DNA of 64,000 bases from Clostridium sp. CAG:1000 (GCA_000436975.1 HG000339.1:20796-84795), one strand, 5' to 3'. Positions 21,803-47,763 are shown, counted from the stretch's first letter. Numbers and translations are program-made. The notes: generated by a model from the letters alone, not told the origin.

Positions 21803-21859
21803 TTATTTACCACAACAGTTTTTGTACTTTTTGCCACTTCCACAAGCTCCCTTTTTGAG
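21803..21859 (-). pseudogene. displaced remnant of the secA 3' end (C-terminal zinc-finger codons)
   Basis: Minus-strand translation LKKGACGSGKKYKNCCGK* compares with the intact SecA end DLCPCGSGKKYKQCCGK* at 45277. An in-frame stop lies about 35 codons upstream and there is no start. Many synonymous differences, so this is not a recent duplicate. Confidence 0.6.
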
Positions 21860-21980
21860 CATATTATCACTATATTTGGTACATATAGTATTATGGCTTT
21901 TAGCCTTATTTTATGGGCATTTAGTACATATTATTATCAGTATTATTTGTATTATAAATATTACTAATAATTTGTTCAAT

Positions 21981-22000
21981 GTGGACAAAATGTGGACAAA
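21981..22000. repeat. tandem GTGGACAAAA/TGTGGACAAA repeat, left cluster
   Basis: The 20-mer GTGGACAAAATGTGGACAAA is identical to 45198-45217. A third copy ACGTGGACAAAA lies at 22063-22074. Confidence 0.8.
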
Positions 22001-22073
22001 GTCATCATACATTTTATCTTTTGTTTCCAAGGAAATTATATCATATATTGATTACTTAATCAACGTGGACAAA

Positions 22074-22105
22074 AAAGCACTTTTAGTTTTTTCTAAAAAT
22101 GCTTT
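22074..22105 (-). terminator. intrinsic terminator after the S-subunit gene
   Basis: AAAGCATTTTTAG-loop-CTAAAAGTGCTTT hairpin followed by TTTTTT on the minus strand. Confidence 0.6.
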
Positions 22106-22110
22106 ATTTT

Positions 22111-23181
22111 TTATATTAATCCTGTTTGTACTAAATTAACTTTATTAGTTTCTTCGTTAAATATTTGTGTCATATATTTCTTCATGTATTCCCAATCTGG
22201 TGTTTCATCTTCTTTTACTGGTAGGTAAAAAGAAAAGTCTGTTTTTATATGTCTATTTAATTCATCAATAAAAGCTTTATAGTAAGTTCTACTTTCTTTA
22301 AAAATCATGGTTGCTATAAATTGTTTAACCTCAAAAGGCATATCCCATTTTGGAATTAGAACAATAACATTTTGACTAGTATAGTATTCTTTTGGTTGTA
22401 CAAAACATGAACCTAAATATTCTCCTCCTAGAGAAACTGTTAAAGTTCCTGCTGGATATGGTTTTAAATTTTCTATACGATCAACACATGTTGTTATTCC
22501 ATTATTTGCATTTGCTCTTCCAACAAAATTTATTGTTGGGTCTATATCAACCATCTTTGCTTTATCTAATTTTGTTCCCATATCTATATCAAACATATTT
22601 TTATCATATAAATGAAATCTTTTCCATTTTATTACATTCAAAGGATTGTTATTCGTATTGGATTTTGAAAGATTAATAATATCATTTTTAGTTTCTAAAA
22701 TCACATTTTTCATATATGATTCCATATATTCCCAATCCGGTTCTTCATTTGAATTTACAGGTAAAGGTATTTGTTCTGATAAAATTTTATCTTTAGTTAC
22801 AGCATCATTCCAAGAATACTTTTGTCCAAAATATGTTTTTATTAATGAAACTAAATATAAATAACATTCTTCACTTATATCATAATCTTTAACTCTTATT
22901 ACAAAATTATGACTATCATTTGAAACAAAATCATCTTTTTGATAAGTTATAGTAAAAGTTTTCCCTCCTACTAAAATACAATGTCCTTTTATTATTTCAT
23001 ATTTTGAAGCATCTATATAAGCATAAACGCCATTATTATATGCACTAGCTGTTACATAAGGAGTTTCCCCACTGCCATCTTCTATATCTCTTGCTAATAT
23101 ATTTCCAGTATTTTTGCACGTAAATAATTTGTTACAATCAAAATTTTTCCAATTTGATATATCAATCATTACTATCACCAT
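22111..23181 (-). CDS. restriction-modification specificity (S) subunit with two target-recognition domains
   Basis: 356 aa with two TRD-like halves, each ending in the conserved spacer PDWEYM(E/K)xYM. Overlaps the upstream methylase gene. Confidence 0.8.
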   Translation of the reverse strand: MVIVMIDISNWKNFDCNKLFTCKNTGNILARDIEDGSGETPYVTASAYNNGVYAYIDASKYEIIKGHCILVGGKTFTITYQKDDFVSNDSHNFVIRVKDYDISEECYLYLVSLIKTYFGQKYSWNDAVTKDKILSEQIPLPVNSNEEPDWEYMESYMKNVILETKNDIINLSKSNTNNNPLNVIKWKRFHLYDKNMFDIDMGTKLDKAKMVDIDPTINFVGRANANNGITTCVDRIENLKPYPAGTLTVSLGGEYLGSCFVQPKEYYTSQNVIVLIPKWDMPFEVKQFIATMIFKESRTYYKAFIDELNRHIKTDFSFYLPVKEDETPDWEYMKKYMTQIFNEETNKVNLVQTGLI

Positions 23182-24967
23182 CTTTACTTAAACAGATATT
23201 TATTTTATCTTTATTTTCAGTGATATTACTTGCATATAATGTAGCATTTAATAATTTATCTGAAAATTCTTTACTATCAATTCCTTTTTCAAAAAGTATG
23301 TAATCCATTGCGGTTTTTCTAAAATCAGACTCATATATTTCAAATGGCTTTTGAGGTACTTGATAACTTAAACAATCAGCAGGCGAAATCCATTGAATTG
23401 TTTTATCGCCAGATTGTTTATTAATAACATCTACCCAGTAATCTTCATAACCTTGCCATTTGTTCTTAACATCATGTCTACCTTGATTTTTTACTGTGAT
23501 TAATCCATCTTCTTCAATATAGCATGCAAAGATTTGCTTATCATTTTGAGGAATACCTGCTTCAAATATAAATACTGAAGTAGTCACTCCCTCCGAGAAT
23601 GTTTTATCTGGTAATTTTACTATCTTTTTTAATGTATGCTTTTGTAGAATTCTTTTGATAATAGTATTGCTAACTTTTTCTAACTTTTTTTCCGGAAGTA
23701 TGAATGCACATAATGTTCCACGTTGTACATTATCAAGTACATTTTTTACTATTTGAATACAACCATACTTATTCTCAAATGGTGGATTCATTAATACCTT
23801 TGTTATTGGTTTTGACTTTATCCATTCACATGCTTCTTCTGTTCTAGAATCTAGTTGTGTAAGGTTTGTTTTTCCATCTTTATGAATTAGCATATTAGCA
23901 CATGCAAGAGCATATATTTCTCTATCAAATTCAATACCATATAATTGTCTTGATTTAATATTTTTAGCAGTTAATGTGTTAATGCCACCAGCTTCACTTA
24001 TCATATTACACATAGCTTTAACCAAGAAAGCACCTGATCCACAAGCTGCATCTAATATCACATCGTCTTTGTTAACTCCAATTAATCTATACATTAATGA
24101 TGTTACATGATCTGGAGTAAAAACTTGTCCACTTTCAGATTTTTTCTTATATCTATTAAATTCATTAAAGAAGATACCCATAACATCTTCACCATTCCAA
24201 TAATCACTATTTATAGAATCACTTATTTCTGTAACCCATTCAATGAAATTTGAAATAGCTTCTTGATTACTAGTCGTATTCATCTTTATATCAGAAAAAA
24301 CTTCTAATAGAATGTCAATTTTCGGATTAACATTATCCTCATTTTTTAATTCAGTTTTTAAAGTTGATTTAATACATGCTGAGAATGTTTCATAATCCAT
24401 TTTTTTATTTAATGGAGCATCGTATCTTTTTGCTACTAAAGCACATGCTGTAAAAATCATTCTATGATATAAATTTTTAATACCAAATTCGGTATGCAAG
24501 CAATTATTTATCTTAGCAGTTAAAGAGTAGATTTTATCTTTATCTATTTTGTTTTTATTTAATAATCCAATATAGTATTCTTTATTTTGCAATTCATTAG
24601 TTGTTTCAATCTCATTATTATTTCTATAAACTTTAATATCAAAACCATTATAAAGAATACCAATTACATTTTTATATTTTGTTAATGCTATAGTACAATT
24701 CTTTTTAATTTCTTCAATTTGTTTATCTTTTAATTCAACTAAAGAAGATTTTGCTTCTAATATTATTGCAGGATCATTCGTATTATCTGGAAGATACCAA
24801 CCGTCCGGTTTGTCATTAACTCCTTTAAATCCTAATTGATTAAAAGTTGTTAATTGTCCAACACCTGCTTTTACGTTTTTAATTTCTTCTTTAAAGCCTA
24901 GTATATAACCAGCCATTTCCCTAATTTCATCTTCTGTATAATTTTGATTATTTAATATACCTGCCAT
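23162..24967 (-). CDS. fused PD-(D/E)xK nuclease / N6-adenine methyltransferase (BcgI A-subunit-like, Type IIB/IIG-like)
   Basis: 601 aa. N-terminal PDGWYLPDNTNDPAIILEAK (PD..ExK), SAM motif DAACGSGAFL and catalytic NPPF (VLMNPPFENKYG). No separate HsdR in the window. Confidence 0.65.
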   Translation of the reverse strand: MAGILNNQNYTEDEIREMAGYILGFKEEIKNVKAGVGQLTTFNQLGFKGVNDKPDGWYLPDNTNDPAIILEAKSSLVELKDKQIEEIKKNCTIALTKYKNVIGILYNGFDIKVYRNNNEIETTNELQNKEYYIGLLNKNKIDKDKIYSLTAKINNCLHTEFGIKNLYHRMIFTACALVAKRYDAPLNKKMDYETFSACIKSTLKTELKNEDNVNPKIDILLEVFSDIKMNTTSNQEAISNFIEWVTEISDSINSDYWNGEDVMGIFFNEFNRYKKKSESGQVFTPDHVTSLMYRLIGVNKDDVILDAACGSGAFLVKAMCNMISEAGGINTLTAKNIKSRQLYGIEFDREIYALACANMLIHKDGKTNLTQLDSRTEEACEWIKSKPITKVLMNPPFENKYGCIQIVKNVLDNVQRGTLCAFILPEKKLEKVSNTIIKRILQKHTLKKIVKLPDKTFSEGVTTSVFIFEAGIPQNDKQIFACYIEEDGLITVKNQGRHDVKNKWQGYEDYWVDVINKQSGDKTIQWISPADCLSYQVPQKPFEIYESDFRKTAMDYILFEKGIDSKEFSDKLLNATLYASNITENKDKINICLSKDGDSND

Positions 24968-24968
24968 A

Positions 24969-25190
24969 TTATTTCACACCTTCCTTTATTGTCTTAAATT
25001 CAACTAAATTACTGATATCGCAATCAAGAACCTCAGCAATTTTCTTTAACGAATTTAAACTGATTTCTTCATCTTTAGCAATTTTTGATATTGTAGTTGA
25101 AGATAACTTTGTTAATTTTTTTAATCTTGTTTTTGTCATTTTATGCTTCTTTAATTCACACTCTAATGGTAAATAAGATATCTCTTTCAT
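24969..25190 (-). CDS. XRE-family HTH protein, possible R-M controller (C) protein
   Basis: 73 aa HTH. Its stop lies 1 nt before the methylase ATG. Confidence 0.55.
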   Translation of the reverse strand: MKEISYLPLECELKKHKMTKTRLKKLTKLSSTTISKIAKDEEISLNSLKKIAEVLDCDISNLVEFKTIKEGVK

Positions 25191-25526: not shown

Positions 25527-26711
25527 CTAAAGAACAAGACTGTCGTCTTTTTCCTTATTCTTCTTTTTACCACTAATAAACTCTTCAAATTCATCATTAA
25601 ATTCATCTTCTTTATGTCTAGGTATTAATCCATCAGCTACTAAATGATATACAAAATTAGCCATTTTATTGATAACATTTTTTAATGTATCAATTGTATT
25701 AGATAAAGTAAATGCTTTATATCTTAAATTAGTATTTTCATATTTTAAATTTCTATTTTCATCTTCTAGTTTCATATTTTGTTGATGTATTTTTGAATAA
25801 TCATTTGTTACCTCTTTAAGGTTTTTATAAGCATTATTTAGTTTAGGTTTTAAATCTTTAACTTTCTTTGCTTCTTCTACTACTTTATTCATACTATCAA
25901 AAGTTTCTTTCTTAACTTTAACAGATTCTTTATCAAACATAATTGTTTTATTTGATTTCATTTTTTCTTCTAATTCATTAATTGATTTTGATAACTTATC
26001 ATCTTTTAGATCTAGTTCATTAGTTAATGATTTAGTTAGTTTCTTAAACTCTTTAATATTAATATGCTCTCTATCGCTATGTTTAGTTCCTCTTTCTAAA
26101 GCAAAACCACACATATTTAGATATTCACAATATTCATCTTGTAACTCACTCAAGTGTTCTTTATCATGTATAAATTGCTTTTTAGATATTGTATACCTTT
26201 CTGTATTAGTTCTTTTATCTAGCTTCTTAACTAGTGGGACTACAACACAATGAATATGAGGTGTTTTTTCATCCATATGTAATGTTGCATGTAATATTTG
26301 ATTATCTTCATATCCTAACCCAAAATGTACAAATTCCATACATCTATAAGCCCAATTTTTAATTGCTTCTTTACTCATATCATTAAAGAATGTGTGTGTT
26401 GCAGTGAAAACTAATTCATCTGCAACAACACTTTTTGATTTATCTACCATTTGTCTAAAAGTTCTTTTTCTATCTTCTCTTTCATTTTTCATTCTTTCTT
26501 CATGTTCTTTTTTATAGTCTTTAGTTATTTCATAAAAGCCTTTAACATATTTCATATTAAGTGGAAAAAGTTCTACATTATCTTTTGTTTTAGATAAGTC
26601 TATATCAGGATTAGATTGATATGCTTTTTTCTCTCTTTTGTTATGTGATCCAATTTGTGCTAAATCATTTAAAGTATAAATTGGTTCACTTCTAAATATT
26701 GCATAATTCAT
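25527..26711 (-). CDS. MobV (Mob/Pre) family relaxase
   Basis: 394 aa with a HMDEKTPHIHCVVVP (HxDE..PHxH) motif and a coiled-coil C-terminus. Confidence 0.8.
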   Translation of the reverse strand: MNYAIFRSEPIYTLNDLAQIGSHNKREKKAYQSNPDIDLSKTKDNVELFPLNMKYVKGFYEITKDYKKEHEERMKNEREDRKRTFRQMVDKSKSVVADELVFTATHTFFNDMSKEAIKNWAYRCMEFVHFGLGYEDNQILHATLHMDEKTPHIHCVVVPLVKKLDKRTNTERYTISKKQFIHDKEHLSELQDEYCEYLNMCGFALERGTKHSDREHINIKEFKKLTKSLTNELDLKDDKLSKSINELEEKMKSNKTIMFDKESVKVKKETFDSMNKVVEEAKKVKDLKPKLNNAYKNLKEVTNDYSKIHQQNMKLEDENRNLKYENTNLRYKAFTLSNTIDTLKNVINKMANFVYHLVADGLIPRHKEDEFNDEFEEFISGKKKNKEKDDSLVL

Positions 26712-27988
26712 ACTAATTTACCTTCTTGTATTTGAAATCTTATAGCATTTTCTATAACATTAGACTTATTATTTTTATCAAATAACTCTACAGCACTCTT
26801 TCTATTATCCTCTAAACTGGTAATATAATAGTTCTCTGTTGTTTCTACATTTCTATGCCCTAACAAATTAGCTACATCATTAATCTTAGTTCCATTATTT
26901 AATACTTTAGTTGCATATGTTCCTCTTAAATCATAGAATCTACATTTTTCTATTCCTAATTCACTATGAATTATTTTAAATGGATATTTAGGAACATCAG
27001 TTCCAGAGAATGATCCATCATCATTAGTAAATACTAGATTTAATTTTTCTTCATTATTTTTGTTAATAACTATTCTTTTATCAACAACTTTTCCATTATC
27101 ATTTTTTATAGTTTCTAAATGGTAGTATTTATAATCTTTATCAAATATTCCTTTAAGATATTCTTGTCTTTCTTTAAAGTTTTTTAATGCTGTTATTAAT
27201 GTATTTCCAATATATATTTGTCTTGTTCCAGATATAGTTTTAGTCGTACCTAAATACCATCTTCCTAAACTATCTTTAGGTTTATCATATAAATTATGTC
27301 TTATATTTATTATTCCATTTTCTAAATCAATATCTTCCCAAGTAAGTGCAAATACTTCTCCAGTTCTCATACCTGTATAACAAGATGTTAAGAACGATGC
27401 TACGAAAGTAGCATTGTCCTTAAATCTATCTATTATTTTATCTATTTCTTCATTTGTATAATAATGTCTTTTATTATTTAGTTCTTCTTCTATTTTAGGT
27501 AATCTTAATGTTAGAGCTGGATTATACTTTATAAATCCATATAAATTACATGCATCTCTAAATGATCCTTTAATAACTTTTAATATATTTTTATAATATG
27601 TTTTAGAATGATTATATTCATTAACTAAATCAGTTATAAATGAATTTAAAGCAACACTTGTTATTGTTGATAGTTTATATTTTCCTATATTCTTTTTTAG
27701 ATATTTATTAATAATTATTTTATATGTTTGAATAGTATTATATTTTAGATTATTCATACAATAATTTTTTAACCAATAATCAAGATAATCTGAATAAGAT
27801 AAATCACATTGTTTAAATGAAATACCTGCATTTAAATATTCAGTATATGCAAGGGATCCAGATTCTAAAGCTTCTGCCTTAGTTCTAAAACCTGATTTAC
27901 TTAACCATTGTCTTTTATTATCTACCTTAGCTATTTCAATTCTATATTCATAGAAATTTCCTCTTTTTCTGATATTTATTTTACTCAT
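26708..27988 (-). CDS. int: tyrosine integrase with N-terminal AP2-like arm-binding domain (integrase A)
   Basis: 426 aa with KRGNFYEYRIE..SKSGF N-terminus and catalytic region YDLRGTYATK..LGHRNVETTENYY. Paralog of the integrase at 43753-45060. Confidence 0.85.
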   Translation of the reverse strand: MSKINIRKRGNFYEYRIEIAKVDNKRQWLSKSGFRTKAEALESGSLAYTEYLNAGISFKQCDLSYSDYLDYWLKNYCMNNLKYNTIQTYKIIINKYLKKNIGKYKLSTITSVALNSFITDLVNEYNHSKTYYKNILKVIKGSFRDACNLYGFIKYNPALTLRLPKIEEELNNKRHYYTNEEIDKIIDRFKDNATFVASFLTSCYTGMRTGEVFALTWEDIDLENGIINIRHNLYDKPKDSLGRWYLGTTKTISGTRQIYIGNTLITALKNFKERQEYLKGIFDKDYKYYHLETIKNDNGKVVDKRIVINKNNEEKLNLVFTNDDGSFSGTDVPKYPFKIIHSELGIEKCRFYDLRGTYATKVLNNGTKINDVANLLGHRNVETTENYYITSLEDNRKSAVELFDKNNKSNVIENAIRFQIQEGKLV

Positions 27989-28220
27989 TTACTTCTACCT
28001 CAATTACTATCTTTTTAATATCAGATAAATTAGATAAATCTTTTCCCTCATTTTGAATCAAGAATCTTTCTAGTGAAGATTTTAATACTTTTAAACTTCC
28101 CAATTTAATAGCTGGTAAATATCCTTTTTTAATTAATTCATAAATATAATTTGGACTAGAATGTAATATAGACGATACTTCATGAACTGTATAAACTAAC
28201 TTATCATTCATCTGAATCAC
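27981..28220 (-). CDS. xis: excisionase-type HTH DNA-binding protein
   Basis: 79 aa; YTVHEVSSILHSSPNYIYELIKKGYLPAIKLG is typical of the excisionase/MerR-like family. Overlaps int. Confidence 0.6.
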   Translation of the reverse strand: MIQMNDKLVYTVHEVSSILHSSPNYIYELIKKGYLPAIKLGSLKVLKSSLERFLIQNEGKDLSNLSDIKKIVIEVEVNE

Positions 28221-28731
28221 TATCCTCTCCAGTAATCTCTCTTATCATTCTTTCCATTTCAGCTTGTTCTTCAGGAGTAGCAGGTTCAGATTTAATATCT
28301 TCATTAAGCCACCAAGGAACTGGTGTTTTATCATATTTATCACTATTATATTTATATTTATTTCTATTATTATATTTATTATTATGTTTAACTGAATAGT
28401 CAATATCTTCTTGATTATTTGATTTATCTCTTATTGACCAATTAGCCCATATATCATCAACTAATTGAATAACCCTTCTAGTATTTTTATCATTGTGATC
28501 ATAAATACATTTAATTAATCCTATCTTTTCTAATTTCTTAATATGTCTTGAAGCTGTTTCTATTGTTATATTATACATTTCAGATAATCTCTTATTCGTT
28601 ATCCAACAATATCCTTCCTTTTTGCATAAGTATATAATACGTTCAGCAATCAATTTTTCTTCTGGTGTTAATAATTTTGTTTCATAAATGTGTTTCGGTA
28701 CTATTGCATAAATTACAATATAGTTTTCCAT
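28204..28731 (-). CDS. winged-helix DNA-binding protein (element regulator or replication-initiator-like)
   Basis: 175 aa with an HTH (NITIETASRHIKKLEKIGLI) and an acidic C-terminus. First gene of the xis-int-mob operon. Confidence 0.45.
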   Translation of the reverse strand: MENYIVIYAIVPKHIYETKLLTPEEKLIAERIIYLCKKEGYCWITNKRLSEMYNITIETASRHIKKLEKIGLIKCIYDHNDKNTRRVIQLVDDIWANWSIRDKSNNQEDIDYSVKHNNKYNNRNKYKYNSDKYDKTPVPWWLNEDIKSEPATPEEQAEMERMIREITGEDSDSDE

Positions 28732-28900: not shown

Positions 28901-28927
28901 GTTCGTAATATCTTAATATGACGATCC
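28901..28927. repeat. junction motif J1
   Basis: GTTCGTAATATCTTAATATGACGATCC ends 2 nt from the stop of 28930-29400. Near-perfect dyad CGTAATAT-CTTA-ATATGACG. Confidence 0.75.
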
Positions 28928-28929
28928 TT

Positions 28930-29400
28930 TTATTTATCAAATTTGAATAATTCAAGAACAATAGAAACTATAAAAAGAGTAATACCACTATATAAAAATG
29001 TATATCTAATTATATTCCAATGTCTATCATCAGGAAATATACGATTTAATACTATATTTAAAATAAATGCAACAATAATAATTGCCATAAATACATAAGA
29101 AATAATCGTTAATACCTTTTTTCTTTTATCAATTTGTTTTCTTAATTTAATTAAATTTTCCTCGGATTTATTCATATAATCATTCCCTTTAATTTTTTCA
29201 CCAGATAATAATTCATTAACATTAATATCTAACTCATTACATAAGTCTTTTAATAAAGAATAATCTGGCATTGTATTGCCATTTTCCCATCTACTAATTG
29301 ATTTACTTGTAACACCTAATTTTTCTGCTAATTGTTCTTGAGTTAAACCATTTTCTTTTCTACAATTTAAAATAAATTTTCCTATTTTAATTTGATCCAT
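28930..29400 (-). CDS. XRE-family HTH regulator with C-terminal TM helices
   Basis: 156 aa starting MDQIKIGKFILNCRKENGLTQEQLAEKLGV, with two TM helices. Paralog of 39016-39639. Confidence 0.7.
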   Translation of the reverse strand: MDQIKIGKFILNCRKENGLTQEQLAEKLGVTSKSISRWENGNTMPDYSLLKDLCNELDINVNELLSGEKIKGNDYMNKSEENLIKLRKQIDKRKKVLTIISYVFMAIIIVAFILNIVLNRIFPDDRHWNIIRYTFLYSGITLFIVSIVLELFKFDK

Positions 29401-29571: not shown

Positions 29572-29599
29572 GTACGGGAATATCTTAATATTCTAATCG
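29572..29599. repeat. junction motif J2
   Basis: GTACGGGAATATCTTAATATTCTAATCG ends 2 nt from the stop of 29602-30114. Contains the dyad GAATAT-CTTA-ATATTC. Confidence 0.75.
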
Positions 29600-29601
29600 T
29601 T

Positions 29602-30250: not shown

Positions 30251-30264
30251 GGAACTTTCGTTCC
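30251..30264 (-). terminator. short intrinsic terminator overlapping the J3 end
   Basis: GGAACGAAAGTTCC followed by TTTTTG on the minus strand. Confidence 0.5.
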
Positions 30265-30285
30265 TAATATCTTAATCTTCCGATC
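30260..30285. repeat. junction motif J3
   Basis: GTTCCTAATATCTTAATCTTCCGATC ends 3 nt from the stop of 30289-31176. Shares the 17-mer ATATCTTAATCTTCCGA with J6. Confidence 0.8.
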
Positions 30286-30288
30286 ATT

Positions 30289-31176
30289 CTAGAATAATGA
30301 TATTTGTTCATTATCCTTTATTTCTTTTTTATATGCTTTAATAATATCTTTCATATTATAAAGTATTCCATACTTATCACATTCATTAGTAAACACTTTA
30401 TATAATGATTTATAGTTAGGAACAGCACAATTATATCTTTCTCCATAATATTTGATATATTTTTCTTTTAAACCTTTAAAATGTTTATCTAATTTTTCAA
30501 AATAATAATCTCTTTGATTTTCTCTTAAAGTCATTCCCACATATGTATGAATAAACTTTGCTCCACTTTCATAAGCCATTTTAACTAATTTTTTAATATC
30601 TTCTTCATTATCAGTAATAAATGGTAGAACTGGATTCATCATTATTCCTGTAAATATACCATTATCAGATAATATTTTTATTGCTTCAAATCTTTTAGAA
30701 GATGCACATACATGGGGTTCAATTATCTTAGATAATTCATCATTAGGAGTTGTTATTGTAAATTTAATGATTACATTATTCTTTGAATTAATTTCTTTAA
30801 GTAAATCTAAATCTCTTAAAATCAAATCACTCTTTGTATCAATAGAAACCCCAAAGTTATATTTTAATAGAAGTTTTAATGCTCCTCTTGTTTGCTCATA
30901 TTGTTTCTCAAGTGGATTATAAGTATCAGACATTGAGCCAATACCTACAACACCTTTCTCTTTCTTTTTAGATAATTCACTTTCTAATATTGCAAGTGCA
31001 TTTTCTTTTCCTTTAGGAATATCAAAATTATCTATATGATAGCAATTACTTCTACTATCACAATATATACAACCATGAGAGCAACCTCTATATAGGTTCA
31101 TATTATAATCTATACCATACCAGTCAGAACCATATTTGACTTTTGATAGTATAGTTTTTGCTTTTACAAATTCCAT
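30289..31176 (-). CDS. radical SAM protein, SPL/DNA-photolyase-like family (COG1533-like)
   Basis: 295 aa with a CSHGCIYC (Cx3Cx2C) cluster near the N-terminus. Confidence 0.7.
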   Translation of the reverse strand: MEFVKAKTILSKVKYGSDWYGIDYNMNLYRGCSHGCIYCDSRSNCYHIDNFDIPKGKENALAILESELSKKKEKGVVGIGSMSDTYNPLEKQYEQTRGALKLLLKYNFGVSIDTKSDLILRDLDLLKEINSKNNVIIKFTITTPNDELSKIIEPHVCASSKRFEAIKILSDNGIFTGIMMNPVLPFITDNEEDIKKLVKMAYESGAKFIHTYVGMTLRENQRDYYFEKLDKHFKGLKEKYIKYYGERYNCAVPNYKSLYKVFTNECDKYGILYNMKDIIKAYKKEIKDNEQISLF

Positions 31177-31955: not shown

Positions 31956-31975
31956 AGAGAATTTTTGCATTCTCT
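31956..31975 (-). terminator. hairpin plus T-run directly after J4
   Basis: AGAGAATGCAAAAATTCTCT followed by TTTTT on the minus strand, then the TGGTATAAT -10 box. Confidence 0.55.
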
Positions 31976-31995
31976 TAATATCTTAATCTTTAGAT
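31974..31995. repeat. junction motif J4
   Basis: CTTAATATCTTAATCTTTAGAT, between the hsp20 terminator and the GNAT promoter. Confidence 0.65.
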
Positions 31996-32039
31996 ATATT
32001 TCTTTTTTTAGAGAATTTTACGTATCATAATTATAAAAA

Positions 32040-32636: not shown

Positions 32637-32674
32637 TTTTTATTCTTTTGGATATAGATTTAGAAATATTTAAT

Positions 32675-32754: not shown

Positions 32755-32757
32755 AAA

Positions 32758-32782
32758 AAAAGACTAGAAATTCTAGTCTTTT
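32758..32782. repeat. target-site duplication, left copy (a terminator hairpin)
   Basis: AAAAGACTAGAAATTCTAGTCTTTT is identical to 34439-34463. Confidence 0.85.
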
Positions 32783-34438
32783 CAGACTGTTGACAAATAG
32801 GTAAATAAAATTGCTTATTTGTCTTTTTTGTTGATTATTATTGCTTATAAACATCATATACACCTATTAGGTATAATGATGTAGTGCAAACTTTTTAAGA
32901 TTCATGCACGCATAAAGGAGAGTCAACTCACGGTGGACTCTTTCTTTTGATTTAAAGTATGTTTTTCGTAAACCATACTTGGTTTTACCATCTGCAAAGA
33001 TTCGTTCTATATGTTGCGGTCTTTGCTTATATATTTCTTTGACATCTTCTTGATGTCGATAATCATTAGTCATTTCTTTATATCCTTCCCATACATGTCT
33101 TAATACTTGTTTATATTTTCCTTTTGTACATTGTTCTTTAAATGGACAATTAGCACAATCATTAGAAGATGATTTATAAATAACAGATCCATCTTTATTC
33201 ATTGAGGTTGGTATTAAGTCTTTATTATTAGGACAAATATAAATATCATTGTACTCATCATATGTAAATTCATATTTTTTGAAATATCCTTTTCGATATC
33301 CTTTTCTTGTATAAGGAAAGGCTGGTATCATATCTAAATCTATTATTGTTTTACAAATATGGTTAGTAAGGTAGGCTGCATCGCCAACGAAATATTTTAT
33401 ATTAGAAATATCAAAATGATTTGTTAAATTTTCGAAAGATTGATAGAAAGAAACCGAATCATGAACATTACTTGGATTAGTATCTACTGTTAATACATAA
33501 TTATTGTTATCACATATTACACTTGAATTGTATCCAAACATTTTTTCTTTATCACTTTTGTATAACATTCCTGCATCTTTATCAGTATCACTTGCTATTA
33601 TTTCTTTTTCTCCTATAACTTCATTTGTATCTACTTCTTCGTTACATTTAATTATTCTTTCTACTTCTTCAAAATATTCTTCTTCTGTTAAATTTTCATC
33701 ATGTAGTTCCTTTAATGCCATCTCTAAATCCAATTCTTTTTGATATTTCTTAGCCTCTATTTTTACTGTTTCCTTGTGATTTTTTTTCTTATTTGCATTT
33801 GCTTTAGTATGGGTTGAATCTATATATACTGCTGTCATATCTAAACAATCCCAGTTTATTAATAAATCTATTACCTTATCGAATACTGTTTGTAATAAAT
33901 CTTTTTCTAATTTACAAAATTTTCTTTTATAATTTTGTGAATATGTTGAATGATCTGGAACTTTTTCTCCTAATTCATATCCAATAAACCATCTATACAA
34001 AATATTATATTGAATATCCTCATATGTTCTTCTTAAACTATCTATATTAAAAAGAAACTTTAATATATGAATTTTTACTAATACAACTGGATCAATACTT
34101 TTTCTTCCAACTGTTGAATATAGTTTTTCTACTTCTTCATATACAAAGTTCCAATCAAAATGTTTTTCTATTACTCTTAAAAAATGATTTTCTGGAATCA
34201 TACTTTCTATATTTATAAATTCATTTGAAAATTGTTTTATTTTTCTTTTGGTCATTGCCATTTTTTCATCACTTACTTTCTTTACTTTGTCCAATAATAT
34301 TATAACATTTTTTCATAAAAAAAGTAAGGACTGTAAGCTTTAAAATTTGGACAAAATAAAGCATCCTTACTTATTAAGTATATAACATTTTTGAAAAAAT
34401 AAAAAGACCATTAACAAAATTTATTTGTCAACAGTCTG
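32783..34438 (-). mobile_element. IS1182-family insertion sequence (1656 bp)
   Basis: 17-bp perfect terminal inverted repeats CAGACTGTTGACAAATA, a single DDE transposase ORF, and 25-bp direct repeats on both flanks. Confidence 0.85.
32867..34294 (-). CDS. IS1182/IS5-type DDE transposase
   Basis: 475 aa. N-terminal ENHFLRVIEKHFDW..GRKSIDPVVLVKI (InsH-type N-domain) and a C-terminal Cys-rich DDE region. Confidence 0.85.
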   Translation of the reverse strand: MDKVKKVSDEKMAMTKRKIKQFSNEFINIESMIPENHFLRVIEKHFDWNFVYEEVEKLYSTVGRKSIDPVVLVKIHILKFLFNIDSLRRTYEDIQYNILYRWFIGYELGEKVPDHSTYSQNYKRKFCKLEKDLLQTVFDKVIDLLINWDCLDMTAVYIDSTHTKANANKKKNHKETVKIEAKKYQKELDLEMALKELHDENLTEEEYFEEVERIIKCNEEVDTNEVIGEKEIIASDTDKDAGMLYKSDKEKMFGYNSSVICDNNNYVLTVDTNPSNVHDSVSFYQSFENLTNHFDISNIKYFVGDAAYLTNHICKTIIDLDMIPAFPYTRKGYRKGYFKKYEFTYDEYNDIYICPNNKDLIPTSMNKDGSVIYKSSSNDCANCPFKEQCTKGKYKQVLRHVWEGYKEMTNDYRHQEDVKEIYKQRPQHIERIFADGKTKYGLRKTYFKSKERVHRELTLLYACMNLKKFALHHYT

Positions 34439-34463
34439 AAAAGACTAGAAATTCTAGTCTTTT
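34439..34463. repeat. target-site duplication, right copy
   Basis: AAAAGACTAGAAATTCTAGTCTTTT is identical to 32758-32782. Confidence 0.85.
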
Positions 34464-34578
34464 GTTTTATTATTTACTTATTTTTTCATTGATTGCGGCC
34501 TGAATTGCAGTATAACTCGCATCACATATATGAATTAATTCTTATTTGTGAAAATATATAACTATATTTATATAATTA

Positions 34579-37205: not shown

Positions 37206-37228
37206 AAGGCTAGATTTCTCTAGTCTTA
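37206..37228 (-). terminator. intrinsic terminator between the small ORF and mgtA
   Basis: AAGACTAGAGAAATCTAGCCTT followed by TTTAA on the minus strand, starting about 10 nt after the small-ORF stop. Confidence 0.5.
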
Positions 37229-37474
37229 TTTATTTAATTACTTATTGTTTTTTGCTTTGATTGCAGCTTGTTCTGCTGTGGATTTACTTGGTCGAAATGG
37301 CATACCGCTGCGATGTTTCGAGGTCATAACCCATAGTCGCTGTATCGTTACGTGGGCGAATCTTAATACCGCCGTAACGTTGCGTGATCTTTAGCTTTAT
37401 AGCCACCATCAAGTTACGTGGGCGATACTTTTAACTATATTTATCATCTCTCCATATTTGTTTTACAATGTCAT

Positions 37475-37497
37475 CGTGATATCTTAATCTTCCGAAC
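37475..37497. repeat. junction motif J6
   Basis: CGTGATATCTTAATCTTCCGAAC ends 5 nt from the stop of the TraX gene. Confidence 0.8.
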
Positions 37498-37502
37498 AAT
37501 CA

Positions 37503-40894: not shown

Positions 40895-41857
40895 CTAGCA
40901 AATGTATTTTCTATGAGATATTTTTACATTATTTTGATTAACAAACGCATAATGGAGTGTTGTATCTATTTTGGTATGTCCTAGTAAATGCTGAACTTGT
41001 TCAATTGGCATTCCTTTATCTATTGCTTTAGTTGCAAGTGTCCTTCTAAATTTATGAGGATGTACTTTTTCTTCTCCTAGTTCTTTTCCAAGTTTTTGTA
41101 GCATTAATTCTATTCCTCTGCTTTTCAATCTATCATAAGGTTTATTATTACTTACAAATAATGCTTCATTATTATCTATTCTATTATTCAAATAATCTTC
41201 CATATGTAATTTTGCTTTACCATCAAAGTATACTTCTCTCATCTTTTTACCTTTACCAAATACTAAGCATGATTTATTCTCGAAATTAATATCATCTCTA
41301 TTAAGATTAACAAGTTCACTTATTCTTATACCTGATGAAGCTAATAAATCTATAATAGCTAAATTTCTTATATTGGTACAACCATTTCTTAATCTTTCCA
41401 TTAATTCATCTGAATATGTTTCTTTAATTAAAAACTCTGTTTTTATTTTATGTATTCTTCTAATTGGACTTTTAACTATATAATCTTCTACTTCAAGAAA
41501 AGTAAAGAAACTAGATAAAGATCTTCTTACTCCATCAATAGTTAAATTATTACAACTATTGTTTGATTGATAATATGATAAAAACTCTCTAATATCATCA
41601 GTTTCAATTGTTCTTACATCTTTATCTAAATAGGATAACATCTTATAAATATGTATTTTATAATTTTTAATAGTTAATTCAGAACATCCTTCTATTCTTT
41701 TAGAATTAATAAACTTATTAACATATTCATCATTAGATATTTCTTTCTTTTCAATCTCAATTTTCTTATATAATACTTCCTGTAATTTAGACATTTGATA
41801 ATTATTCAAATATCTATTCATTTCTGAACTTATAGTTCTAATTATATTCTCATTCAT
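40895..41857 (-). CDS. tyrosine recombinase, XerC/XerD-like (no arm-binding domain)
   Basis: 320 aa with SAM-like N-domain and catalytic region ASSGIRISEL .. HPHKFRRTLATK .. LLGHTKIDTTLHY. Confidence 0.85.
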   Translation of the reverse strand: MNENIIRTISSEMNRYLNNYQMSKLQEVLYKKIEIEKKEISNDEYVNKFINSKRIEGCSELTIKNYKIHIYKMLSYLDKDVRTIETDDIREFLSYYQSNNSCNNLTIDGVRRSLSSFFTFLEVEDYIVKSPIRRIHKIKTEFLIKETYSDELMERLRNGCTNIRNLAIIDLLASSGIRISELVNLNRDDINFENKSCLVFGKGKKMREVYFDGKAKLHMEDYLNNRIDNNEALFVSNNKPYDRLKSRGIELMLQKLGKELGEEKVHPHKFRRTLATKAIDKGMPIEQVQHLLGHTKIDTTLHYAFVNQNNVKISHRKYIC

Positions 41858-42890: not shown

Positions 42891-42913
42891 TCGTAAGATT
42901 ACTAATTTCCGAT
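42891..42913. repeat. junction motif J9 (diverged core ATTACTAAT)
   Basis: TCGTAAGATTACTAATTTCCGAT ends at the base before the stop of 42914-43537. Part of a larger inverted repeat ATCGGTAATTA..TAATTTCCGAT (42874-42913). Confidence 0.6.
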
Positions 42914-43537
42914 TTATTTATTATTACTTATTGTTACAATACATCTATCAGCTAACATATTTTTTAAAAAGTCATCTGATTCCATTTTTTTAACATTTTT
43001 AATGTTTAATTGTATAGCCATTTTAATATATGCACTTTTCTTTGATAAATAATAACCATTTTTATATGTCATTAATCTATCCATTAATTCTTCATCAGTT
43101 TCGGGTGGATTATCAAATTCTAAAGATTTTATTATAAATTTTTCTACTTCATTTAATTTATCATAAGATGCTTTTACTTTTTTCAAAAGATTAGTACATA
43201 ACTCTATTGATTTATCATAAGCTTTTCTATCTAATGTAATAACACTAGTATTTGTTGTAGATATATAAGAATAATCAGTAGCTAAATCATAGGATAAAGT
43301 ATAATCTTTAACATTTTCATCAATAAAAATTTTAAACTCCAAGTCTTCAGTTATTTCATATTTCAATGCCTCTTGATACATAGCATGAACTAACATATTT
43401 GTAGATAATATATCTACTATTTCAACAAAATCATTTTTTAGTTCAATATAATCATATTGTTCAATTATTTTGTTAGATAATGTTCCTTTATTATCTAATA
43501 ATTCAGCTTGTAATTTACCATCCTTTACTTTAATCAT
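42914..43537 (-). CDS. hypothetical protein, C-terminus weakly sigma-70 region-4/ArpU-like
   Basis: Start moved to MIKVKDGKL behind AAGGGTGG; the ORF track starts at 43579. The family guess is weak. Confidence 0.45.
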   Translation of the reverse strand: MIKVKDGKLQAELLDNKGTLSNKIIEQYDYIELKNDFVEIVDILSTNMLVHAMYQEALKYEITEDLEFKIFIDENVKDYTLSYDLATDYSYISTTNTSVITLDRKAYDKSIELCTNLLKKVKASYDKLNEVEKFIIKSLEFDNPPETDEELMDRLMTYKNGYYLSKKSAYIKMAIQLNIKNVKKMESDDFLKNMLADRCIVTISNNK

Positions 43538-43570
43538 TTTACCACCCTTACTTCTAAATACTACGAAAAA

Positions 43571-43612
43571 AGGTGTCAATAGTATTAAAGTGTTTAAATA
43601 CTACCGACACCT
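43571..43612 (-). terminator. long intrinsic terminator after integrase B
   Basis: AGGTGTCGGTAGTATTTAAACACTTTAATACTATTGACACCT followed by TTTTTTCG on the minus strand. Confidence 0.65.
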
Positions 43613-43752: not shown

Positions 43753-45060
43753 CTAATCTTGGTATTCTATATCTTGTACAGGCGGAATATCTAAAGTATT
43801 AGCATAATCTTCAAATTTATTAACTGTTTCAGTTTCCATTTTATTTGTTACTCTAACATATATATTATATGTAGTCATTATAGTTGAATGTCCTAATCTT
43901 TTAGATACTGCTTTTATATCAGCGCCTTGTTCTATTAATCTAGTTGCATGAGTATCTCTAAAATCATGAAATCTACAAGGTATTCCAAGTTCATAATTAA
44001 TAACTTTAAATGCATGTCTTGGTGATTCAGTTCCTCTAAAATCTCCATTAGCTCTTACAAATACTAATTTAGCTTCAGGTAGATCTACTTTTATTTCAGC
44101 CTTAGCATCAACTATTTTTATTTCAGGTCTATTTGTGTATTCATTCATTATTCTTTTTTCATAATGTTTTAGATAAGATTCTCCATAGTATTCTTTATTT
44201 TCTTCTTGAAGTTTCTTATATTCTTTTAATGCTTTGACTAATGTATCTCCTATAGATATTGTTCTTTGACTTTGAGGATTTTTACAAGTACCATAACTCC
44301 ATACTTCAACAGAGTGTCCTTTACTTATACAATATCTTTTAGGTAGTCCATACTTATTCTTTTTAATAATATTTTTATTAACAGTTATAGTCTTTTTTTC
44401 AAAATTAATATTATCCCAAGTTAATCCATATACTTCTGATACTCTCATTCCTGTGTAATATGCTGTTAGAAATGAATAATAAATATAAGGAACATCTTTA
44501 AATCTATCTAATATCTTTTCTATTTCTTCCTGAGTAAATATATGTGCTGGATCTCCACATACTACTTCATATCTTGGAATATGTACTTTTTCAGCAGGAT
44601 TTTCATTTATAAAATTAACTGAATAACATGCATATCTTAATGAACCTTTTACTACTTTCATAATGTTTTTTAAATACCATTTAGATAAATTCTTTTCTAC
44701 AAATATCTTATTAATAAATTCTTGTAACATTTGAGAATCAATTTGCCATAGTGCATATCTTCCTAACATAGGTTTTAAGTATAGTTTAATAATATTTAAA
44801 TATGTAACAATGGTTGAATATTTTAAATTAAAATTACAATAAGTATCAATCCAATAATCTAAGTAATCAGAATATGACATATCTTTATTTCTTCTAACTC
44901 TTCCTATCTTATAATATTCTGTATAATCTAATGCACCTTGATTTAATGCATCCTGTCTTGTTGGAAATCCTGATTTAGATATCCATTTTCTTGTGCCATC
45001 AACCGAAGCAGTTTCAAATCGGTATTCATATACCTTTCCACGTTTTCTTACGCTTACCAT
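43753..45060 (-). CDS. int: tyrosine integrase with AP2-like arm-binding N-terminus (integrase B), adjacent to secA
   Basis: MVSVRKRGKVYEYRFE..SKSGF N-terminus and catalytic FHDFRDTHATR..LGHSTIMTTYNIY. Start moved to the ATG behind AAGGAGAG; the ORF track starts at 45117. Confidence 0.85.
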   Translation of the reverse strand: MVSVRKRGKVYEYRFETASVDGTRKWISKSGFPTRQDALNQGALDYTEYYKIGRVRRNKDMSYSDYLDYWIDTYCNFNLKYSTIVTYLNIIKLYLKPMLGRYALWQIDSQMLQEFINKIFVEKNLSKWYLKNIMKVVKGSLRYACYSVNFINENPAEKVHIPRYEVVCGDPAHIFTQEEIEKILDRFKDVPYIYYSFLTAYYTGMRVSEVYGLTWDNINFEKKTITVNKNIIKKNKYGLPKRYCISKGHSVEVWSYGTCKNPQSQRTISIGDTLVKALKEYKKLQEENKEYYGESYLKHYEKRIMNEYTNRPEIKIVDAKAEIKVDLPEAKLVFVRANGDFRGTESPRHAFKVINYELGIPCRFHDFRDTHATRLIEQGADIKAVSKRLGHSTIMTTYNIYVRVTNKMETETVNKFEDYANTLDIPPVQDIEYQD

Positions 45061-45130
45061 TTTTATACTCTCCTTTTCTAAAATTGGTAAACAAAAAATG
45101 CCATCGAATGATGACATTTATCTTTATAAA

Positions 45131-45251
45131 TTGTCCACAAAACGTGTACTAAATTTCACAACATTTTTTGCCCTATTGTCCACAATTTTAAATTTACGTG
45201 GACAAAATGTGGACAAATGGCAATTTTCGGTCAATTTTTACGTGGACAAAA
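45131..45251. repeat. cluster of five GTGGACAA motifs between integrase B and the secA stop
   Basis: Inverted copies TTGTCCACAA at 45131 and 45176. Direct tandem copy at 45198-45217 (identical 20-mer to 21981-22000) and ACGTGGACAAAA at 45240-45251. Confidence 0.8.
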
Positions 45252-45276
45252 TCCTCGCAAACCCTTATATTTCCTA

Positions 45277-47763
45277 CTACTTACCACAACATTGTTTGTA
45301 TTTTTTCCCTGAGCCGCAAGGGCATAAGTCATTTCTACCTACTTTTTTATCAGCTTTTTTAGGTTTACTCTTAACACCCTCTTTGACATCATTAGTTTTA
45401 ATATTTTTAACTTCTTCTCTTTCTATATTTTGTCTAACTTCAGCATTAAGCAAGAAATTTGATATTTCAGCAGAAATATTAGCCATCATGTTATCAAATA
45501 AATCAAAGCCTTCTAATGCATAAACCTGAAGTGGATTACTTTGTGCATAACCACGAAGTCCAACGCCCTCTTTTAACGCTTCCATTGCATCTAATTGATC
45601 CATCCAATTCTTATCTATACATCTAAGTGATATTGATTTTTCAAAATCATCTTGAATATCTTTAGGCACATCTTCAAGTTTTTTACTATAGTCATCTACT
45701 ACTATTTCATATATGAAATCTATTAATTCGTTAATATCTTTATTAAAATCTTCTTTCTTTAGTTTTCTTTTCTTTAAATATCTAGCATTAAATAATTCTA
45801 TTAAATTATCAACATCATTACTAGTTAATTCACCATCAGTTAAATGACTGTGTACTTGATTAGAAACAAATTCTTTAAATGTATCTAAAACTCTATCTCT
45901 TATACTATCATTATCTAATATTTCATTTCTTCTATTATAAATAATTTCTCTTTGTTTACTAATAACATTATCAAAATCTAATAATCCTTTTCTCCTATCA
46001 AAGTTAAACCCTTCTACTTTCTTTTGAGCTGCTTCAATATTTTTAGAAATCATTTTATTTGAAATTGCTTGATCATCTTTGATACCTAATGTTTCCATCA
46101 CTGCTTTCATCTTTTCAGAACCAAACTTAATCATCAAGTCATCTTCCATTGATACGAAGAATCTTGTAGTACCCGGGTCTCCTTGACGTCCGGCACGTCC
46201 CCTTAATTGATTATCAATTCTTCTTGAATCGTGCCTTTCTGTACCAAGCACATACAAACCACCTAATTCACGCACACCTTCACCTAATTTAATATCAGTA
46301 CCACGTCCAGCCATATTTGTTGCTATAGTAACAGCATTCTTTTTACCAGCATTTTCTATGATATGTGCTTCTCTTTCATGATTCTTAGCATTTAATAATT
46401 CATGCTTAACGCCTGCTTTAGTTAATAATTGACTAACAAGTTCACTTGTTTCTACAGATGCAACACCAACAAGAACAGGTCTTCCAGTCTTATGTATTTC
46501 TTTTACAGTTTTAACAACTGCATTAAATTTGCCCTTAAGTGATGAATATATTAAATCTACTTGATCATCACGAATAACTGGTTTATTCGTTGGAATGCAT
46601 ACTACATTTGTATTATAAATATTTTGAAACTCTTCTTCCTCAGTTTTAGCAGTACCAGTCATACCACTTAACTTATTATACATTCTGAATAAATTTTGGA
46701 ATGTTATTGTTGCTAAAGTTTTAGTTTCTTCGTTAATAGTAACTCCTTCTTTAGCTTCTAATGCTTGATGTAAACCTTCACTAAATTGTCTGCCATGCAT
46801 TAATCTTCCTGTAAATGTATCAACAATAATAACTTTATCATTCTCAATTACGTAGTCAACATCTTTCTTAAATGCGTAATTAGCAGTTAATGCCTTATCT
46901 AAATTATGTACCATAACACTATTACTAATGTCATATAAATTATCCAAATGTAACATCTTTTCACAGTTTTTAACACCTTCTTCAGTAAGTGTTACTTTTT
47001 TAGTTTTTTCATCAACTACATAATCATCTATTTTAAGATTTTTAGCAACTCTATCTGCTTCTTTATATATATTAGCTGATTTAGCAGAACCACCTGATAT
47101 TATTAGCGGCGTTCTAGCCTCATCTATTAATATTGAGTCAACTTCATCAATAATAGCAAAATTCAATCCTCTTTGAGTTCTATTCTCTTTATGAACAACC
47201 ATATTATCTCTTAGATAATCAAAACCAAGTTCGTTATTTGTTGTATATGTTATATCAGCTTCATATGCTTCTTTTTTCTCTTTTGGAGATTTATCTCTTG
47301 TGTTAATACCAACACTAACTCCTAACAAGTCGTAAATTGGTCCCATCCATTGTGCATTACGTGTTGATAAGTATTCATTTGTTGTAATTACATGTACACC
47401 CTTGCCACTTAATGCATTTAAATAAGCAGGTAATACTGTTGTTAATGTTTTACCCTCACCAGTCTTCATTTCAGCAATATTTCCCCTGTGAATAGCAAGA
47501 CCACCTATCAATTGTACTCTAAATGGTTTTTCTCCTATTGCTCTAAAACATGCCTCTCGCGCTAATGCAAATGCTTCAACAGCTATATCATCAAGTTTCT
47601 CACCATCTTCAAGCCTTTTTTTAAATTCTTCTGTCTTAGCTTTAAATTCAATATCCTTTATACTTTGCATTTTCTCGTCTAAAGCTTCTATTTCATCAAC
47701 TATTTTATCTATCTTTTTTAATTCTTTCGTTTCATAATCAAATAAGTTTTTTAATAATCCCAT
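45277..47763 (-). CDS. secA: preprotein translocase ATPase SecA
   Basis: 828 aa with DEAD-like motor motifs (MKTGEGKTL, DEVDSILIDEARTPLIISG) and the C-terminal zinc finger CPCGSGKKYKQCCGK. Confidence 0.97.
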   Translation of the reverse strand: MGLLKNLFDYETKELKKIDKIVDEIEALDEKMQSIKDIEFKAKTEEFKKRLEDGEKLDDIAVEAFALAREACFRAIGEKPFRVQLIGGLAIHRGNIAEMKTGEGKTLTTVLPAYLNALSGKGVHVITTNEYLSTRNAQWMGPIYDLLGVSVGINTRDKSPKEKKEAYEADITYTTNNELGFDYLRDNMVVHKENRTQRGLNFAIIDEVDSILIDEARTPLIISGGSAKSANIYKEADRVAKNLKIDDYVVDEKTKKVTLTEEGVKNCEKMLHLDNLYDISNSVMVHNLDKALTANYAFKKDVDYVIENDKVIIVDTFTGRLMHGRQFSEGLHQALEAKEGVTINEETKTLATITFQNLFRMYNKLSGMTGTAKTEEEEFQNIYNTNVVCIPTNKPVIRDDQVDLIYSSLKGKFNAVVKTVKEIHKTGRPVLVGVASVETSELVSQLLTKAGVKHELLNAKNHEREAHIIENAGKKNAVTIATNMAGRGTDIKLGEGVRELGGLYVLGTERHDSRRIDNQLRGRAGRQGDPGTTRFFVSMEDDLMIKFGSEKMKAVMETLGIKDDQAISNKMISKNIEAAQKKVEGFNFDRRKGLLDFDNVISKQREIIYNRRNEILDNDSIRDRVLDTFKEFVSNQVHSHLTDGELTSNDVDNLIELFNARYLKKRKLKKEDFNKDINELIDFIYEIVVDDYSKKLEDVPKDIQDDFEKSISLRCIDKNWMDQLDAMEALKEGVGLRGYAQSNPLQVYALEGFDLFDNMMANISAEISNFLLNAEVRQNIEREEVKNIKTNDVKEGVKSKPKKADKKVGRNDLCPCGSGKKYKQCCGK

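Follow-up and report, generated by a model that had tools for sequence, protein, structure and literature searches.

A putative integrative and mobilizable element in the last codons of secA in an uncultured gut member of the Bacilli

The 64,000-nucleotide stretch of Clostridium sp. CAG:1000 analysed here (GCA_000436975.1 HG000339.1:20796-84795; hereafter the window, with positions counted from its first letter) carries a 23,474-bp segment between positions 21840 and 45319 that is very likely one integrative and mobilizable element (IME), inserted into the last secA codons by a tyrosine integrase. The segment encodes a tyrosine recombinase with its catalytic residues and a relaxase unaccompanied by pore genes in the open reading frames (ORFs) scanned. 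It is bounded by two secA-tail sites 23,474 bp apart, with boundaries taken from 38 left and 13 right junctions, and it is found in unrelated hosts and as a presence/absence polymorphism within a species. A first-pass annotation of the sequence had proposed that an element integrates site-specifically in the secA 3' end and supplies a surrogate gene end, a view strengthened here by the recurrence of the element behind secA of ~30 other species. Best SecA matches come from metagenome-assembled genomes labelled Bacilli, Erysipelotrichaceae, Tenericutes or Clostridium sp. CAG:524, and the host is an uncultured gut member of the Bacilli. The whole window has a G+C content of 26.8% and holds no tRNA genes or Rfam matches. 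The secA gene and the features delimiting the element are as follows.

45277..47763, minus strand: secA (ORF and Pfam SecA domains)
45314..45319, minus strand: attL core, with TTGCGG in the window against ATGTGG in most copies elsewhere; candidate crossover region
45277-45313 (37 nt), minus strand: element-supplied secA end, comprising 11 codons (SGKKYKQCCGK), the stop and one base
45118..45276, minus strand: left arm (P' arm), with the box AAGGGTTTGCGAGG followed by three direct and two inverted TTTGTCCAC/GTGGACAA repeats; conserved together with the integrase in 37 other loci
21846..22110, minus strand: right arm (P arm), with three direct TTTGTCCAC repeats at 21981, 21992 and 22065 and the end ...AAAAAGGGAGC
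21840..21845, minus strand: attR core, TTGTGG; 12 other right junctions part directly after TGTGG
21792..21839, minus strand: displaced secA tail (SGKKYKNCCGK and a stop, 21803-21839) and half hairpin (ACCTGCAAACC); together they belong to the following unit, as its left end, and not to the island

The secA ORF, on the minus strand like all genes in this part of the window, encodes 828 amino acids, and its product contains all SecA Pfam domains, with SEC-C at residues 810-828 and a C-terminus reading ...CPCGSGKKYKQCCGK before the stop. The gene of the adjacent integrase, Int454, starts at 45117, or at 45060 from a second ATG used in public gene calls, that is 160-217 nt past the secA end at 45277, in line with the 160-220 nt first annotated. 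A terminator scan found no intrinsic terminator between the two genes, and read-through from secA into the Int454 gene is therefore possible. The second secA-like copy, at 21803-21859 on the same strand as secA, comprises 19 codons reading MLKKGACGSGKKYKNCCGK before a stop, and, as had been noted, an in-frame stop lies upstream, 36 codons ahead of the fragment's own. The accompanying statement that the fragment has no start is not literally true, as an ATG is found 19 codons before its stop. Nothing secA-like was found upstream of the fragment, nor any further similarity to secA or another gene. The noted combination of likeness and divergence between both tails at the DNA level is also seen: the 11-mer TTACCACAACA occurs in the 64 kb at positions 21807 and 45281 only, within 43 nt that are 77% identical. 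The peptide pattern CG[ST]G[KR]K[YFW]K.CC matches twice in the six-frame translation and never in 300 shuffles of the window, so the two copies are not due to chance. A 125-nt site profile returned exactly these two tail copies; as it was made from 77 related sites including both, it is informative only on the absence of a third site in the window.

Related loci allowed the element ends to be placed precisely. The doubled arm repeat, used as a probe, retrieved 118 loci from species-level genomes, and the overall comparison set came to ~240 related loci (numbered L below). At 38 left junctions a near-invariant CTCAGGGAAAAAATACAAACAATGYTGTGGTAAGTAGTAGGAAATATAAGGGTTTGCGAGGATTTTGTCCACG lies to the right of ATGTGG, next to a variable left context that is either secA of ~30 species (54-66% identical to that of the window) or the end of an unrelated unit; an Int454 homologue, 67-100% identical, comes next wherever the contig goes on. 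At the right end, 12 other loci share the sequence ...ATATGCTCAAAAAGGGAGCATGTGG up to GGGAGCATGTGG and diverge immediately afterwards, and integrase-free cassettes have both boundaries at the same hexamer. Since 38 left and 12 right junctions meet or part at this hexamer, we place the exchange point at a putative 6-bp core, (A/T)TG(T/C)GG, located 37-42 nt ahead of the secA stop and within the Pro-Cys-Gly codons; cleavage would fall within it. The 11 codons supplied by the element hold two of the four zinc-binding cysteines of SecA. Three other placements were rejected. Junction comparisons leave the 11-nt identity TGTTGTGGTAA as mere conserved coding sequence and speak against crossover in the terminator-like hairpin after the stop codon, and an integron-style model with a site at the 3' end of each unit fails because the tail always travels with the downstream unit. 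The right arm is 88-98% identical in ~20 loci, with identity stopping at the core in the 12 that have a readable junction. Six of the seven exact GTGGACAAA copies in the 64 kb sit no more than 270 nt from the two element ends, and both inverted copies of the left arm adjoin the Int454 gene. The TTTGTCCAC repeats at both ends resemble integrase arm sites.

Strains of the same species display the exchange of gene ends directly. An exact look-up of the window SecA protein returned contigs in many samples, and these strains are ~99% identical up to ...TTATGCCCATGTGG and different from the next base, exactly after ATGTGG; all of the diverging strains nevertheless encode the tail SGKKYKQCCGK. The change of DNA at the hexamer with an unchanged tail peptide shows that the final 11 codons of secA come with the unit located downstream of it, in support of the surrogate-end reading. 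One of these loci (L236) is 100% identical to the window across 22.5 kb, and L240-L245 are listed as carrying the same IME with other cargo. The ENA assembly ERZ28579408 has a contig (CHAT13-1 scaffold_82) 100% identical to the window. In L237 and L238 secA is followed (12488-22487) by a cassette for an AraC/GyrI-like regulator and a beta-lactamase-fold protein, then by a phage-like element with a 376-aa integrase, an S24 repressor, replication genes and DpnII-type restriction-modification, and then by the Int454 element (L099). The integrase element of L239 and L243 (12488-22487) is a different one with a full type I restriction-modification system; it encodes a PUA-like protein, HsdR and HsdM, has several hsdS genes and also encodes a 321-aa recombinase. 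The gene layout is that of a phase-variable type I system, and the arm repeat differs (TGTTTCC). Across species, the IME is present at the secA tail of ~30 hosts whose SecA is 54-66% identical. In L213, for instance, Int454 (99%), the excisionase-like protein (Xis, 100%) and a second integrase, Int426 (98%), are nearly unchanged behind a secA only 58% identical.

This anatomy fits classic tyrosine-integrase recombination with accretion. In the circular element, attP would be formed where the right end ...AAAAAGGGAGC meets the core (A/T)TGTGG, joined to CTCAGGGAAAAAATAC; after the core would come the element's own last 11 secA codons, the stop and the arm with its TTTGTCCAC repeats. The island-free site would read secA ...TTATGCCC(A/T)TG(T/C)GG joined to AAGTGGCAAAAAGTAC. 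The integrase, either Int454 or Int426, may bind the repeats in both arms, three direct ones in each plus the two inverted ones near the integrase gene, with strand exchange within the core, in the Pro-Cys-Gly codons of the SecA C-terminal zinc finger. Integration would rebuild SecA with its first two zinc-binding cysteines encoded by the chromosome and its last two by the element, and would leave the previously functional tail dead at the element's far end. Excision would be assisted by the excisionase-like protein, and a copy that is mobile today would be transferred by the MobV relaxase together with the conjugation machinery of another element.

In agreement with the first-pass annotation, all DNA between the tail copies is accessory or mobile, as judged by Pfam, NCBIfam and PADLOC. 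The genes of the element are listed from secA outward.

43753..45117, minus strand: Int454, tyrosine integrase (435 aa if started at 45060; Pfam Phage_integrase and SAM_3)
42914..43579, minus strand: backbone gene of 221 aa, always beside Int454; co-occurs in L099, L141, L165, L211 and L213
28903..42913, minus strand: cargo array (Pfam, NCBIfam, PADLOC SoFic)
40895-41857, minus strand: XerA-type recombinase, 320 aa, above the NCBIfam XerA cut-off, in the module next to Fic
32755..34466, minus strand: insertion sequence (IS) with a DDE_Tnp_1_6/DUF772 transposase of 475 aa and 45-nt inverted repeats
28204-28731, minus strand: winged-helix protein, part of the recombination/transfer module 25527..28731 (Pfam)
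27981-28220, minus strand: excisionase-like HTH_17 protein, domain score 26.1, just under the 28.8 cut-off (NCBIfam)
26708-27988, minus strand: Int426, tyrosine integrase (Pfam)
25527-26711, minus strand: MobV relaxase (NCBIfam MobV, 116 bits against a cut-off of 100)
24969-25190, minus strand: control-protein-like helix-turn-helix (HTH) protein (best PADLOC match Control_protein)
23162-24967, minus strand: nuclease/methylase subunit, 601 aa (Pfam N6_Mtase; best PADLOC match REase_MTase_IIG)
22111-23181, minus strand: specificity subunit, 356 aa (Pfam Methylase_S; best PADLOC match Specificity_II)

The two integrases score 95 and 69 bits with Pfam Phage_integrase and are 42% identical to each other, with similar N-terminal regions. 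By alignment, Int454 keeps the Arg, Lys, His-x-x-Arg, His and Tyr positions, and Int426 has a Tyr in place of the first catalytic His, with the other catalytic positions kept. Int454 copies 67-100% identical are found directly behind secA in many species, and the closest phage integrases are ~34% identical. The 221-aa backbone protein has no match in Pfam, NCBIfam or PADLOC. The order winged helix-Xis-Int426-MobV recurs in at least six other genomes (L015, L151, L165, L179, L213 and L223). Among the ORFs scanned with Pfam, no conjugative pore genes (coupling protein, type IV secretion family) and no phage structural, packaging or lysis genes were found, which separates the element from prophages; an oriT was not located either. 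The restriction-modification cargo (22111..25190) is BcgI-like (type IIB/IIG); an earlier assignment of its methylase and specificity genes to an incomplete type I system lacking HsdR was dropped after the PADLOC search.

The cargo array encodes a membrane protein, the XerA-like recombinase, a Fic protein (PADLOC SoFic), an HTH-zinc ribbon protein, a CAAX protease and TraX, followed by a P-type ATPase, the IS, Hsp20, GNAT-YoaP, a radical SAM protein and two HTH proteins. Its modules are exchanged among strains and species, and most end in a conserved ~25-nt site described below. The XerA-like recombinase is absent from strain variants of the element and is therefore itself cargo. The IS lies in a palindromic terminator, AAAAGACTAGAAATTCTAGTCTTTT, that follows the P-type ATPase gene, and the palindrome is found on either side of it; strains L240-L242, 98-99.5% identical around this position, have no IS and an intact palindrome. 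The insertion is nested and recent. Upstream of the P-type ATPase, at 37215-37475 (minus strand), lies a stretch of ~260 nt with higher G+C that contains TCGCCCACGTAAC twice; it has no Rfam match and an ordinary folding energy (z = -0.34).

Two integrases within one segment could instead mean that the zone is a tandem of at least two independently integrated secA-targeting elements, one with Int454 at the left and one with Xis-Int426-Mob, whose internal junction has decayed. The two proteins are indeed only 42% identical. Int426-like genes occur alone in smaller secA-tail-bounded units (L007, L014, L108/L116) and Int454-like genes alone beside secA in elements resembling integrative and conjugative elements (ICEs; L006, L008). 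In L015, the Xis-Int426-Mob module is preceded by a truncated Int454-like gene, and such accretion has been described for other IMEs (PMC5704250). We nevertheless consider a tandem improbable: no third site is present in the window even by sensitive profile, the order Int454 ... Xis-Int426-Mob is kept in L151, L165, L179, L213 and L223, in hosts with very different secA, and both outer arms carry the same TTTGTCCAC repeat set. Because each integrase type also occurs alone, the backbone with its two integrases probably descends from a fusion of two elements that targeted secA, one bringing the left-end integrase and the other the xis-int pair toward the right end; the missing third site, the recurrent backbone order and the shared arm repeat lead us to treat it as one unit today.

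Several observations weigh against a single IME placed by its integrase. It contains two integrases, either of which could be the active one. The only match to its predicted attP sequence was a tandem junction on the chromosome in L136, viral contigs yielded none, and no excised circle was seen. The cores attL (TTGCGG) and attR (TTGTGG) of the window, which share an unusual T at the first position, are one base apart and both unlike the usual ATGTGG. The IS sits in the cargo zone, and this copy of the element could be immobile. No empty site is among the 10 same-species loci listed, a set obtained by an exact-SecA look-up that cannot retrieve SecA with a native tail. Finally, in L215 and L228 a native-like tail precedes the downstream sequence of the element, with the junction at the tail end. 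The junction is thus not always at the hexamer, which indicates that gene conversion within the ~45-nt similar region occasionally occurs too.

This last observation also favours the notion that the island was brought in by homologous recombination or gene conversion across the secA-tail repeat, as part of a larger segment transfer and without integrase action. The tails share ~45 nt of coding sequence that is 75-100% similar, and arrays of similar repeats invite exchange. Such an origin is nonetheless very unlikely: ~50 independent junctions break at the same hexamer though similarity runs 40 nt past it, an integrase gene and repeated arm motifs lie at the junction, and 99% identical elements reside in hosts with secA 54-66% identical, where flanking homology is unavailable.

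On the far side of the IME, the displaced tail is followed by a small separate cassette.

21084..21566, minus strand: GNAT acetyltransferase (Pfam); its small cassette is separate from the island and lies between it and the conserved flank

The 55 nt at 21792-21846 are 100% identical to the functional secA end and cassette start of L103, in which the functional secA end opens a conserved cassette left end composed of the tail, the hairpin ACCTGCAAACCCG...CGGGTTTTT and ~30 nt more. In 18 metagenome loci this left end lies behind secA or behind other units, and the window keeps just its first half. L155 and L108 likewise have the GNAT gene after a secA-tail site. In L155 the site comes after the right end of the same IME, and a TATAAT box and a ribosome-binding site precede the gene; in L108 it comes after an unrelated unit. 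The remnant at 21803-21859 thus reads as a junction of the IME right end, the core and the GNAT cassette left end. The earlier proposal that the old gene end was pushed to the far side holds in that a functional end was displaced: the tail probably served as the functional end of secA until the IME came in. The GNAT cassette occurs in other contexts elsewhere, so the tail is an earlier surrogate and not necessarily the ancestral end. Sequence to the right of the remnant had been taken for native chromosome, until a metagenome scan revealed it as the conserved left end of mobile cassettes; the same scan returned no empty site. Between the remnant and the conserved flank, no further secA-tail site is detectable.

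SEC-C motifs (Pfam PF02810) end other bacterial proteins too. Together with the 19-codon ORF that the ATG gives at 21803-21859, this would suit a decayed end of another SEC-C-type zinc-ribbon gene, or of a duplicated secA, unrelated to the island borders; such an origin, whose zinc-ribbon version the first-pass annotation had named as a refutation of its proposal, can be dismissed with near certainty, as what lies left of the core, ahead of the Cys-Gly codons, is the element's conserved non-coding right end in 12 other loci, the downstream sequence is the conserved cassette left end, and no further similarity to secA or any other gene exists.

Comparison of gene order locates the insertion within a conserved neighbourhood. 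Distant relatives (Bacillales, Izemoplasmatales) have hpf-secA-prfB-yitT contiguous and lack the island; in the window, the order is hpf, secA, 25 kb in between, prfB and yitT. Relative to the closest other species in the genome collection compared, synteny is lost at the secA stop codon and regained at 20189, and that genome holds a 10-kb insert of its own, unlike that of the window. In a relative sharing 74% SecA identity, secA and prfB are separated by only two ordinary-looking genes, neither of them for an integrase.

The secA tail of related bacteria holds whole arrays of units, and dozens of species have kindred elements or small gene cassettes at this target. The site profile identified up to five site copies in a row behind secA, and 54 complete units measure 0.7-7.8 kb (median ~2 kb), the 23.5 kb of the window being the largest; the fetched loci span 8-22 kb, which biases these figures toward small units. 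An Int454- or Int426-like gene is present in 5 of the 54 and absent from the other 49, and most arrays have no resident integrase beside them. One and the same unit can occupy different places in the array from locus to locus, bounded on either side at the hexamer. Some internal array tails have stops or lost residues, and the secA-adjacent tails inspected retain the motif; Cys-His and extended tail variants are normal, and a regular-expression count of intact and broken tails, being unreliable, is used qualitatively only. These arrays are an accretion of IMEs and their integrase-free derivatives, as described for other targets, where accretion and the cis-mobilizable element (CIME) scheme account for tandems of decayed, integrase-free elements (PMC5704250). 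Integrase-free units, shared hexamer boundaries and the GNAT unit beside the island all conform to that scheme.

Many metagenome-assembled contigs (L002, L016, L019, L020, L023, L027) end no more than a few dozen residues from the SecA C-terminus, with matches stopping at residues 797-819, and many assemblies break at SecA residues 815-819. Such breaks are an assembly artefact of the repeated, polymorphic tail site, which parts secA from prfB in those bins. In L006 and L008 (12600-22490), more distant relatives of Int454 (58% identical) lie behind secA, and ParA, ParB and a large SpaA-type surface protein are encoded next. These genes probably mark a larger, perhaps conjugative element that shares the target and is a candidate helper for the IME.

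A second repeated sequence lies inside the IME. A ~25-nt site, (A)TCGGAAGATTAAGATATTAGGAAC, is located directly 3' of the stop codon of most cargo genes, ahead of the terminator hairpin, and is sometimes followed by an inverted partner, TAGTAATATTCCGAAC.

28903-28930, 29579-29601, 30262-30289, 31973-32000, 32674-32701, 37474-37501 and 42891-42913, minus strand: copies of the ~25-nt site

At least 35 copies were found in 23 loci, every one in the orientation of its gene, and breakpoints between related elements fall in or right beside them: TraX is joined to the region after HTH170 in L211, the radical SAM gene to the region after HTH156 in L213 and the 221-aa gene to Hsp20 in L136, and VanZ stands in place of Hsp20 in L241. 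By these breakpoints, the ~25-nt site looks like a module-exchange site. We tentatively raise the possibility that the secA tail of these gut Bacilli is a two-level, integron-like gene-capture platform. At the first level, units of one or two genes with their own functional secA tail would be moved in trans by co-resident IME integrases and stack behind secA. At the second, the ~25-nt (A)TCGGAAGATTAAGATATTAGGAAC after cargo stops would be the exchange point for cargo modules, a job that the second integrase might do.

The ICESt1/ICESt3 family and streptococcal IMEs of Firmicutes integrate in the 3' end of a housekeeping protein gene. As in these elements, a tyrosine integrase here lies beside the target gene, the gene end is restored with the displaced end at the far border, the relaxase comes without a mating apparatus and tandem arrays form via an att site carrying the gene end. 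Unlike them, the element of the window targets secA, has its core in zinc-finger codons and contains two non-adjacent integrases in its backbone, and the integrase-free units at the secA site are very small (median ~2 kb) and numerous. A mobilizable island of Gammaproteobacteria in the 3' end of thdF/trmE can form tandem arrays and depends on a helper conjugative element (PMC5704250; PMC8409611); the IME of the window is likewise mobilizable and in the 3' end of a protein gene, whereas backbone, relaxase type and target differ, and no arrays of small cassettes such as those at the secA site are described there. The logic of target restoration and of a dedicated target is shared with Islander-type islands in tRNA/tmRNA genes, where the split target is restored and the displaced fragment marks the island end (PMC4383910), and with dusA-specific integrases, a family tied to one protein-coding target in hundreds of genomes (PMC4482086); their targets are an RNA gene or the dusA 5' end, in contrast to the secA 3' end.

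Chromosomal integrons resemble the secA site in having a fixed position, a same-strand array of one- or two-gene units and a site copy on each unit, mostly without a recombinase. In contrast to attC, the secA site consists of a coding tail and a terminator-like hairpin, and most arrays have no resident integrase. Integron-integrase models scored 56, 55 and 63 bits against a cut-off of 265, well short of an IntI assignment, and promoterless cassettes with an attC hairpin and an attI next to intI were not found among the secA-tail units.

The first-pass annotation knew of no precedent for the secA 3' end as an integration site, and no earlier description of secA as an attachment site was found in the literature searched, island databases such as TIGER/Islander being outside its scope. 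The ICE/IME surveys found do not contain the word secA in their texts, no paper in that literature pairs "end of secA" with "integrase", and matches for secA with attB, prophage or integrated concern SecA2 or unrelated matters only. The kind of island is known (restored target gene, IMEs in 3' ends, accretion), and the novelty is secA as target; less usual, too, are the very small size of the integrase-free units and a second, putative module-exchange site inside the element.

Collectively, the essential gene secA joins the list of protein-coding integration targets, with an element that encodes two of the four zinc ligands of the protein. The predicted attB/attP pair of an integrase family widespread in uncultured gut Bacilli, with the core ATGTGG and TTTGTCCAC arms, is a possible site-specific integration tool for organisms without genetics. 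The polymorphic secA-tail site explains why metagenome assemblies break at the last secA codons, and marks the secA tail as a hotspot of strain-level accessory genes, among them restriction-modification systems, Fic proteins, ion pumps and acetyltransferases. Integrase-free units, together with module-exchange sites inside the IME, may amount to a cassette system.

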